The notes beneath the pieces are model-generated. The model saw only the letters and a list, made by a program, of their open reading frames with translations, was not told where the DNA came from and made no database searches. Both the position numbers and the translations under genes were made by a program. Positions 10,347-12,692 of a stretch of 64,000 nucleotides of DNA are shown here, piece after piece. Within the stretch, counting starts at the first letter, position 1; every line of letters starts with the position of its first letter. Origin of the DNA: an uncultured Actinomycetes bacterium (GTDB lineage: Bacteria; Actinomycetota; Coriobacteriia; Anaerosomatales; CAVRZR01); the NCBI GenBank assembly GCA_963725795.1, contig CAVRZR010000003.1, positions 517,566 through 581,565 of the forward strand, given 5' to 3'.

Positions 10347-12692
10347 GTGCGACGCAGGGTGTCTTGGTGTTCGCTCTTTCCGTGGCGGTGCTGGTTGCCA
10401 CAGCGGCGTCGGCGTTCGCCTGGGGCAACGGTCCCGCGTGCGGAGTAGGTTTCGGTACGCACGACTGGGTGCTCGACTGAAGCCAAGCGTCTTGCGGGCA
10501 ATCCATCTTGGCTGAGGACGTCTGTCGCGCTCTCGGCGACGGCCGAACCGGACACGGTGACCCGGGACACCCACTACCACTTCTACGATGCTGGGGCACC
10601 CGCTACGGCAATGCGCCGAGGAAGGTGGCATCCCTGTTTGCGCTCGCCGCCAAGGCGTACAGGACCGGGACTATCGCGCTGCGAGCAGGTACGTCGGCCT
10701 GCTCTCGCACTACTACTCGGACACGTGCGAGCCGCTTCACACGGAAAGGACCTCGGCGGGGACAGCGATGCACTACGAGTTCGAGAATTCGGTCGACCTC
10801 TTGGCCGATGTGCCCGGGAGAGAACCGCTCGTGGATCAAGAGCGACGGATTCCAGCGCGTCACGAATATCACCGCGAAGACGAAACGGCTGCGGGTCTCG
10901 CCCATGGATACTACGGTTCGCTCGTTTCGGAGTACTCGCTCTTCGGGATGGATGCGTCGGTCGCTCGATGACTCGCGTCGTGCTCGTCGCGCTGTGAACG
11001 ACCTCGCGGACGTGATCCGCTCGATTCCCACGGCTGCGACCAAGGGAGCCGGCGTCGCCTCGCCGCCGATGGGCTGCGCGCCGGCGACCGCAACGGTCAC
11101 GGGGTGATCCGCGACAGCTGCGGACCGGTCGCGGGCGCGGTCGTCCGCGTACAGGCGAGCGCATGCAGCACGCTCTCGAGCGCCAGAGGCTGCTTCTCGC
11201 TGGAGGTGCCGGCGGATACGACCGGAACCCTCTCAGCTTGGGCGCCCGGCTACTTCATCGAGGGAAACGTGCCGTTGGTGCGGGGTGCAACAGGAGATAA
11301 CGATCGTGTTGAGGCGCATCGCCCTCGGCGACGAGCCGGCGTACGCTGTGGCGCTCGGTGTCCGGCACTGGAGGAGGCGGGCGAGAGCTCTGCGTGCGAG
11401 ATCTGTCACAGCGCCGCAGGCACCGGACTGAACCTGGACTTGCCCGTGGAACAGTGGCAGAAGGATGCTCATTCGCGGTCTGCCCTCAATCCCAGGTTCC
11501 TCACTATGTACGCGGGGACCGACCTGGCCGGCAACCAGAGCCCGCTCACGCGATACGCGCAGACTCGCGACTACGGACGCATTCCCCTGAGGCCCGATCC
11601 GTCGAAGCCCTACTTCGGACCGGGATACCGACTCGACTTCCCGGCGACGTCGGGCAATTGCGCGACCTGCCACGTGCCGGTGGCCGCAGCGAACGATCCC
11701 TTCGGCATCGATGTCCGCACGGTTACGGGTGTCGCGGCGTGAGGGCGTCGCCTGCGACTTCTGCCACAAGGTCTGGGACGTGCGTCTCGACCCGAACACG
11801 AGACTGCCCGAACCAGGGCTGCCGGGAGTGTTGTCGTTCAAGTTGCGTCGTCCGTCTGCGGGGCATCAGTTCTTCGCGGGGCCGTTCGACGACGTGGCTC
11901 CCGGCGACGACACTTACACGCCCGTGCAGCGAGAAAGCGCGTACTGCGCGCCGTGCCACCGGGGAATGTTCTGGGGCGTGCTCGTCTACGACTCCTACGG
12001 CGAGTGGCTGGCAAGCCCGTACAGCGATCCGAAGACGGGGAAGACGTGCCAGGACTGCCACATGCCTCGCACGGGCGCATCGCACTTCGCCTTGCCGCGC
12101 AAGGGCGGGCGGGCCCGCGATCCTGACACCCTTCGTAGTCACACGATGCCCGGCGCGGCCGACGCGGTGCTGCTGCGTAACGCGGTGTCGATGACCGTCT
12201 CGCCCACGCGGCGCGAAGGCGAGATCGTCGTAGACATCGCGATCGTCAACGACCGCACCGGGCATCACGTTCCCACGGATTCGCCCCTCCGGAACGTCCT
12301 GTTGATCGTCTCGGCCACCGATGCAGTACCGGTCGACCACTCGCGCAGGTCGGTGGACCCGGGTGCCCGACTGGGGCGGGCAAGGCGATCCTGCTGAGGG
12401 CTACTACGCGGGTCAGCCGGGAACGGCGTTCGCGAAGGTGCTCGAGGAGCTGTGGACGCGAGTCACGCCGACGGGCGCCTACTGGAAGCAGACTCGGCTT
12501 GTCTCCGACAACCGCATCCCCGCATTCGGCCGCAACGACACGACGTACCGGTTCGCGGAACCGCAATCAGGTGAGGTTCGCGTTCATGTGCGCCTGCTCT
12601 TCCGCCGCGCGTTCATCGAACTCGCCGATCAGAAGGGGTGGAAGGACCCGGATATCGTGATGGCCGAGTACACGAAGGTGCTTTCCCGTTAG
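10347..12692 (+). pseudogene. Secreted mosaic protein (Zn-phospholipase-C/P1-nuclease-like + CarboxypepD_reg-like + pentahaem cytochrome c) broken by at least 8 frame shifts
   Basis: The reading hops between all three + frames.
- Signal peptide: VRRRV / LVFALSVAVLVATAASAFA|W.
- PLC-like blocks: GTHDWVLD / EAKRLAGNPSW..DTHYHFYD / WGTRYGNAPRKVASLFALAAKAYRTG / DYRAASRYVGLLSHYYSDTCEPLHT..HYEFENSVD.
- CarboxypepD_reg-like: VIRDSCGPVAGAVVRVQ.
- CxxCH motifs at 11393, 11659, 11753, 11945 and 12048.
- Ends at TAG 12690-12692. Confidence 0.6.

Follow-up and report, generated by a model that had tools for sequence, protein, structure and literature searches.

A zinc-phospholipase-C-like domain fused to a pentahaem cytochrome c in an uncultured actinobacterium: gene architecture and probable origin of its frame breaks

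The 'PHC' family of pentahaem cytochromes groups c552 of Thermochromatium tepidum with Geobacter ExtKL/Gsu2801 and with cytochromes of cable bacteria; it is related to the archaeal cytochrome nanowires, and no function has been assigned to c552 (PMC11976967). Zinc-dependent phospholipases C (PLC) such as PC-PLC of Bacillus cereus, Listeria PlcB and the N-domain of the Clostridium perfringens alpha-toxin have an all-helical fold and an N-terminal Trp that is freed by signal-peptide cleavage. Relatives of both groups meet in a gene at positions 10347-12692 of a 64,000-nucleotide stretch of DNA (hereafter the window; contig CAVRZR010000003.1 of assembly GCA_963725795.1) from an uncultured Actinomycetes bacterium. 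This fusion architecture is genuine, rare and undescribed, and it is assembled from known parts. The gene becomes readable after the correction of 15 single-base frame breaks. It probably encodes one functional secreted protein of 782 amino acids, with frame breaks that stem from errors of a long-read consensus and not from decay.

Reading frame and domain architecture of the fused gene

The longest plus-strand pieces of open reading frame (ORF) in the gene region comprise 139, 127, 199, 212, 228 and 123 amino acids and are spread across the three plus frames. A frameshift-aware protein-to-DNA dynamic programme run against intact homologues merged them into one gene of 782 codons, which extends from a GTG at 10347 to a stop codon at 12690-12692. 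An earlier reading of the letters without database searches (the sequence-only reading) had found no single ORF and had joined the segments to one product of about 780 amino acids, which agrees with the repaired gene. It had counted at least 8 frame breaks; the shattering was borne out, and the alignment raised the number to 15. Each break is a single-base event, the net shift is -3, and there are no in-frame stops. One base is missing at nine sites (near 10362, 10590, 10664, 10883, 10963, 10986, 11105, 12329 and 12361) and one base is in excess at six (near 10475, 10822, 11296, 11348, 11376 and 11740), all positions being accurate to within a codon or two. The junction GAC t GAA at about 10475-10478, previously read as a single extra base, was confirmed as such by the alignment. 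With the alternative TTG/GTG start at 10364/10367, the count is 14. The G+C content of the gene region is 66%, as in the remainder of the window, and a hidden Markov model (HMM) of codon usage by frame assigned the region to the plus strand, the minus-strand ORFs being the usual shadows of high-GC DNA.

The repaired translation matched Zn_dep_PLPC (PF00882) with 29.4 bits, a small margin above the gathering score of 26.8. A profile of 36 family members retrieved the PLCs of B. cereus and Listeria in the PDB with E=2e-12. In the AlphaFold2 model of the intact orthologue P0001, the N-domain was predicted with a local distance difference test score (pLDDT) above 90, and Foldseek aligned this model with 1ah7, 8cqm and 1ca1 at E-values of about 1e-6 to 6e-5 (TM 0.54-0.63 on target). 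The all-helical fold is common to the window domain and the described enzymes, at a sequence identity of only about 16%. All 36 aligned family members have the Trp right after the A-x-A site (AFA followed by W in the window), and cleavage before Trp26 would expose, as in the described enzymes, the N-terminal Trp that serves as a zinc ligand in the PLC/P1-nuclease fold. When the nine zinc ligands of PC-PLC (W1, H14, D55, H69, H118, D122, H128, H142 and E146) were compared with the family, eight mapped to the conserved residues W1, H14, H53, H97, D101, H107, H118 and E122 (mature numbering); besides the Trp, these are the equivalents of His14, His69, His118, Asp122, His128, His142 and Glu146. 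The counterpart of His142 is His in the window and in its closest relative, contig L003, and Arg in the intact homologues P0001 and P0002 (residue ~143). The PLC-like head is predicted to keep a near-complete tri-zinc site.

The following domain matched CarboxypepD_reg in the window copy with 22.2 bits, under the Pfam gathering score of 32.3. Most homologues carry precomputed PF13620 matches, and PF13715 matches occur among them as well. The sandwich fold of the P0001 model matched 5aq0 (TM 0.76) and 9hfj (TM 0.78).

The cytochrome region scored 31.6 bits with the Pfam model Cytochrome_C7, above the cut-off of 24.8. None of the five CxxCH motifs varies among the 37 family rows, and H377, H600, H641 and several Met are likewise invariant. 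The PDB entry 5ZE8, the low-potential c552 of T. tepidum, was matched by phmmer (E=0.008), by the family profile (E=2.3e-9) and by Foldseek (E=1.8e-8, TM 0.34), the TM value being low because the haem region of the P0001 model is poorly predicted; the strands of the C-terminal sandwich were predicted with high pLDDT. The ExtKL model NF040886 of NCBIfam gave 32.7 bits against a cut-off of 250, and by this score the window cytochrome is a relative of ExtKL and no ExtKL equivalog. MtrC/OmcA and NapC/NirT were discarded as candidate families, as they gave only sub-threshold partial matches on CxxCH-rich stretches.

The repaired translation retrieved two intact homologues of 782 amino acids, P0001 and P0002, at 100% query coverage. 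Both are single ORFs on their contigs and align from end to end with no in-frame stop. The window protein shares 80% of its amino acids with the repaired orthologue on L003, 69-70% with P0001 and 64-66% with P0002. The 402-kb contig L003/L004 is syntenic with the window at about 82% DNA identity, and its orthologue is full length apart from one frame break. Since relatives carry intact single ORFs with the same domain order, the gene is a true fusion; separate adjacent genes are ruled out by the 782-amino-acid ORFs of P0001 and P0002 and by the continuous linker. The sequence-only reading had proposed precisely this order, namely a signal peptide, a zinc-PLC/P1-nuclease-like domain with the expected metal-ligand blocks, CarboxypepD_reg and a multihaem module with five CxxCH motifs, all of which were located. 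It had also suggested a search of relatives for an intact orthologue, which P0001 and P0002 now provide.

The two halves of the protein have different distributions. More than 400 proteins of 530-600 amino acids match only the C-terminal ~68%, that is, the cytochrome without the PLC-like domain. The PLC-like domain family comprises 561 cluster representatives, in which the domain stands alone or with partners other than the haem module; it is N-terminal in every one of the 150 representatives listed. These partners include CWB2 cell-wall-binding repeats, Big_1, peptidase M28, pectate-lyase-like beta-helices and F5/8-C. At 20 genome and 41 metagenome loci with stand-alone PLC-like homologues, the 4-6 kb on each side contained no haem module, and none of these loci revealed where the fusion arose; the fusion is thus known from just four sequences, those of the window, L003/L004, L001/L005 and L002. 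To the sequence-only reading, a PLC-multihaem fusion was not known to have been described, in line with full-text searches of a literature library, which returned neither such a fusion nor a CarboxypepD_reg-multihaem family.

Table 1. Features of the fused gene, its surroundings and other broken genes of the window
Feature	Position	Strand	Basis or remark
Whole fused gene	10347..12692	+	782 codons, GTG start; readable after 15 single-base frame corrections
Signal peptide (VRRRV.LVFALSVAVLVATAASAFA)	10347..10420	+	read from sequence; predicted cut before Trp26
Zinc-dependent PLC-like all-helical domain	10421..11040	+	Pfam PF00882, family profile, fold match
PLC-like metal-ligand block GTHDWV	10454-10471	+	sequence
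PLC-like metal-ligand block AEPD	10542-10553	+	sequence
PLC-like metal-ligand block HYHFYD	10572-10589	+	sequence
PLC-like metal-ligand block SHYYSDTCEPLHT	10705-10743	+	sequence
PLC-like metal-ligand block MHYEFE	10768-10785	+	sequence
Pro/Ala/Thr-rich linker	11041..11106	+	low pLDDT at residues 241-248 of P0001 model; variable in alignment
CarboxypepD_reg / transthyretin-like beta-sandwich (IRDSCGPVAGAVVRVQ...)	11107..11376	+	Pfam, homologues, fold
Five-haem c-type cytochrome region	11377..12172	+	Pfam, NCBIfam, motifs
Haem motif CEICH	11395-11409	+	sequence
Haem motif CATCH	11659-11673	+	sequence
Haem motif CDFCH	11753-11767	+	sequence
Haem motif CAPCH	11945-11959	+	sequence
Haem motif CQDCH	12047-12061	+	sequence
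HTMPGA	12140-12157	+	sequence
C-terminal beta-sandwich	12173..12689	+	part most like T. tepidum penta-haem c552
Conserved TGHHVPTDSPLRN block of the sandwich	12257-12295	+	
Dense error patch, 12 of 15 breaks	10362..11376	+	7 missing-base and 5 extra-base sites
Frame break, one extra base (GGCG t GAGGG)	11740	+	frameshift-aware alignment
Two frame breaks, one base missing at each	near 12329 and 12361	+	frameshift-aware alignment
Terminator-like GC-rich hairpin, 12-pair stem, T-rich tail	10162..10192	+	consensus match only; after the gene of the 68-amino-acid protein
Conserved 68-amino-acid Cys-rich protein (CPHCG...CHVCSG...CERCG, zinc-ribbon-like)	9906-10112	+	homologues without Pfam match on record
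Secreted BNR/Sortilin-Vps10-type beta-propeller protein, ~835 amino acids	12713..15222	+	starts 21-24 nt past the cytochrome stop
EamA transporter, single break	~4949	+	domain continues across two frames
Threonine synthase (thrC), single break inside Pfam domain	~25145	-	domain continues across two frames
Glutamine synthetase (glnA), single break inside Pfam domain	~27436	-	domain continues across two frames
MetH-like gene (S-methyl_trans, Pterin_bind, B12-binding) over four frames	34266-36744	+	breaks ~35143, 35393, 35946
GatB (gatB), single break inside Pfam domain	~47400	+	domain continues across two frames
Pseudouridine-phosphate glycosidase (psuG; Indigoidine_A/PsuG-like), single break	~52265	+	domain continues across two frames

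Origin of the frame breaks

The 15 breaks in 2.35 kb amount to 6.4 per kb. The other 61.6 kb of the window hold nine supported and up to about five unverified breaks, or 0.15-0.23 per kb; where these counts come from the frame HMM they are lower bounds, because this reference-free model finds larger frame changes, merges closely spaced ones and in its first pass set 9713-10687 as non-coding. Relative to the rest of the window, breaks are therefore about 28-44 times as dense in the fused gene, and relative to the immediate flanks more than 50 times. The tenfold excess of the sequence-only reading was right in direction and too small in size. The background rate would predict about 0.5 breaks in the gene, and the 15 present lie far outside chance (Poisson estimate by hand of order 1e-16).

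Single breaks in other genes of the window correspond to a background indel-error rate of about 1 per 4-7 kb. In glnA, gatB, thrC, psuG and the EamA transporter gene, either one Pfam domain or neighbouring domains of one protein span two frames, and one of the three breaks in the MetH-like gene falls within Pterin_bind (Table 1). These genes are broken yet not plausibly dead. The sister contig L003 is contig_25005 of the metagenome-assembled genome (MAG) MFD05942.bin.3.284, labelled 'uncultured Actinomycetes bacterium'. The MFD (Microflora Danica) catalogue of MAGs was produced from Nanopore reads only, with Flye assembly and one round of Medaka polishing (PMC12313526). Besides the break in the L003 orthologue (L003:12032), split N-domain matches on further MFD contigs occur at L018:6483-6500 and L024:6450-6485, consistent with residual indel errors throughout the catalogue. 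Essentially unpolished Nanopore sequence is expected to contain indels at about 1%.

Comparison with the relatives showed no trace of relaxed selection across the gene. With P0001 as outgroup, 48 changes were unique to the window and 40 to L003 (relative-rate test, p=0.46), and a second outgroup gave 46 and 37. The ratio of non-synonymous to synonymous divergence (dN/dS) relative to L003 was 0.16 for the whole gene, with 0.25 in the PLC part, 0.08 in the sandwich and 0.13 in the haem part. The synonymous divergence of 0.73 resembled that of the flanking genes (0.70-0.98). All frame-breaking events are +1 or -1, no nonsense codon occurs, and the cofactor residues are intact. Owing to this lack of acceleration, the low dN/dS, the single-base lesions free of stops, the broken housekeeping genes and the Nanopore-only sister, consensus error is favoured, and the 15 breaks are quite likely an artefact. 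They would be single-base errors of a long-read metagenome consensus, clustered in a poorly supported patch of a structurally variable island (10226-17207) that carries the fused gene, a BNR/Sortilin gene and a gene for a periplasmic binding protein.

The same breaks could be real mutations in an accessory gene of a dispensable island that was inactivated recently. Such a pseudogene would account for a break density so far above that of the flanks and of the rest of the window, and for breaks that are not restricted to homopolymers. The island is also absent from the related Logan contigs L029-L031, from which it follows that the gene is dispensable. In bacterial mutation spectra, substitutions outnumber indels several-fold; a gene with 15 real indels would generally be expected to show dozens upon dozens of additional substitutions as well, besides several stops and a few indels of greater length. 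The gene has no in-frame stop and no frame-breaking event longer than one base, it shows no lineage-specific acceleration (48 against 40 changes) and its dN/dS remains at 0.16 with the dS of its neighbours, and it has kept every cofactor residue, while glnA, gatB, thrC and metH are broken in the same assembly. A genuine pseudogene is thus improbable. The sequence-only reading had left the choice between a decaying pseudogene and a low-quality assembly patch; the latter half of this alternative is retained and the former is not. Decoding of the gene by programmed frameshifting or other recoding is exceedingly improbable. Apart from the existence of frame changes nothing speaks for it, and it is contradicted by the 15 sites, which are of both signs and have no slippery motif in common, as well as by the orthologues of the fused gene, which are plain single ORFs.

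Several observations weigh against a functional protein hidden behind consensus errors. The genes of the near flanks (IMPDH, GuaA, CM, DAHP synthase and the periplasmic binding protein) are free of breaks, and a single one lies in the BNR gene; as the near flanks are clean, a 1-kb patch with 12 breaks is not explicable by uniformly low coverage of the island. The break contexts are mostly short runs or non-repetitive sequence and not long homopolymers. Homopolymer errors are the classic error type of Nanopore sequencing, and with such contexts they do not explain the patch. In the N-terminal part, window-specific changes are slightly more numerous (29 against 19), though not significantly so. 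Where PC-PLC has Asp55, the aligned column holds Ala in the window and L003, as compared with Asp in over 90% of the family; Asp44, which is invariant and lies three residues past this column, may replace the ligand in the window domain. In the P0001 model, the haem region is of low confidence. The consensus errors are deduced rather than seen in reads, the sequencing technology of the window is taken over from that of the sister contig, and the function of the fused protein is proposed from homology only. The Logan contigs yielded no independent copy of this species from short reads: L029-L031 lack the island and reach an identity of only about 76-83%.

The confined extent of the patch would fit either a local drop in read support or the collapse of diverged strain alleles in the part of the variable island that evolves fastest. 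In the second case, a form of the artefact, reads of at least two co-existing strains with diverged alleles of this surface gene would have been merged, and the polisher would have produced a chimeric sequence with indels. The patch coincides with the fastest-evolving part of the gene (dN/dS 0.25 in the N-domain and 0.08-0.13 downstream), and the gene content of the locus differs between relatives. Microdiversity is moreover named as a limiting factor of the MFD assemblies (PMC12313526). Against this, the BNR gene, with a dN/dS of 0.18, evolves at a similar pace and has only one break, and a strain collapse is indistinguishable without reads from a simple patch of low depth. We regard the collapse of strains as possible but somewhat unlikely, and read-consensus error in the broader sense as the preferred explanation.

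Other frame changes were noted in the window. The MetH-like gene at 34266-36744 forms a second, weaker patch of frame errors. A 72-nt excursion of the frame HMM at 43076-43147 (plus strand) lies within an intact ORF of 710 amino acids (41869-44001) and is probably model noise rather than a compensating pair of indels. On the minus strand at 58516-59209, an RHH (CopG/HicB-like) gene stands next to a PIN-domain gene and resembles a VapBC-type toxin-antitoxin pair; the frame change between the two is a true gene boundary and not an error.

Neighbourhood of the fused gene

The terminator-like hairpin upstream of the fused gene suggests that the gene may begin its own transcript. The gene for the 68-amino-acid Cys-rich protein that precedes the hairpin keeps its syntenic place ahead of the island in every relative examined. 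On the Logan contigs L029-L031, this gene is directly followed by uvrD/pcrA. The island varies further among its carriers: L003 holds about 5 kb more than the window and two extra BNR paralogues, and L001 is devoid of the substrate-binding-protein gene.

The BNR/Sortilin gene downstream of the fused gene contains one frame break near 12932, as located by frameshift-aware alignment. A BNR/Sortilin gene is adjacent to the fused gene in L001, L002 and L003, the three fused loci of which the context was read. Three cytochrome-only loci were read as well. In two of them, L026 and L027, which belong to a Phycisphaerales genome and another MFD contig, it overlaps the cytochrome gene by 1-4 nt; in the third, L028, the two genes are part of one cluster. 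The gene order in L026 and L027 is reversed relative to the window. The cytochrome-only pair loci extend over L026:3275-7746, L027:3614-7677 and L028:1-7683; neighbours in L026 and L028 include glycoside hydrolases and a rhamnogalacturonan lyase. The BNR gene and the CarboxypepD_reg-pentahaem gene are a gene pair conserved across phyla, for which no function has been described.

Proposed function and comparison with known systems

The apoprotein would be exported via its Sec signal. Attachment of c-type haem needs the extracytoplasmic side, and the haems would be added outside the membrane. Five-haem chains of this kind have been linked, though not by proof, to electron transfer in the periplasm or outside the cell, and the chain may carry electrons at the cell surface together with the putatively co-transcribed BNR/Sortilin beta-propeller protein. 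The zinc domain might hydrolyse, or merely bind, phosphodiester or phospholipid head groups and so tether or target the cytochrome; the term lipid-active would follow from family resemblance. A tethering role of the PLC-like head fits the lipoprotein-type signal, recognized by eye from a Cys, of the cytochrome-only proteins P0003 and P0020. In its stand-alone relatives, the PLC-like domain would be the catalytic head of surface-anchored proteins. More speculatively, the cytochrome and BNR pair could constitute an undescribed extracytoplasmic redox system, to which a small actinobacterial clade added a catalytically competent zinc-PLC-like head; we consider this full proposal rather doubtful. 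If it is true, the head physically links a five-haem electron wire at the surface of a monoderm cell to membrane tethering or to the chemistry of phosphodiesters or lipid head groups.

The shattering of the gene is most likely not biology, and the main value of the locus lies in the uncharacterised cytochrome-propeller module and in a cautionary lesson for annotation. More than 400 members of the cytochrome family are spread over Planctomycetota, Actinomycetota and Chloroflexota, and in two of the three inspected cytochrome-only loci the pair stands beside polysaccharide-degrading genes. As a large, uncharacterised module with consistent BNR pairing, it offers a two-protein target for studies of extracellular electron transfer, which would extend beyond the Geobacter and Shewanella models and include Gram-positive Actinomycetota. 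As for annotation, the patch of a long-read MAG has split one gene into at least six catalogue 'proteins' and can serve as a worked example. The 228-amino-acid window fragment (11711-12394) shares a 90% cluster with the 730-amino-acid L003 protein, and since this broken fragment represents the cluster, the near-intact relative was invisible in the first homology search. A pseudogene label for such loci would be wrong, and errors left in place pollute the protein databases.

Compared with the described systems, the locus combines familiar parts in an unfamiliar order. Like c552 of T. tepidum and the other PHC cytochromes, the window protein has five CxxCH motifs, and c552 is its best fold match in the PDB, with a match that spans the last haem and the beta-sandwich including H-x-P-T-x-x-P-(L/F)-R. 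The window protein is much larger than c552 and ExtKL and, unlike these, has a CarboxypepD_reg domain before the haems and, in its clade, a PLC-like domain. The pentahaem nitrite reductase NrfA, historically also called 'cytochrome c552', shares five c-type haems and secretion with the window protein; it was rejected as a candidate, as the translation contains no CxxCK, and searches of Pfam, NCBIfam and PDB sequences with it gave no match to NrfA. Unlike PC-PLC, the window PLC-like domain belongs to a modular family in which it forms the N-terminal head and the C-terminal partners vary. A further comparison is with the proteins of 530-600 amino acids from Planctomycetota, Acidimicrobiia and Anaerolineales, annotated as 'carboxypeptidase regulatory-like domain-containing protein' or 'mono/diheme cytochrome c family protein'. 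They share with the window protein 53-60% identity over residues ~256-782, the same five haem motifs and the neighbouring BNR/Sortilin gene, and differ from it in lacking the PLC-like domain.

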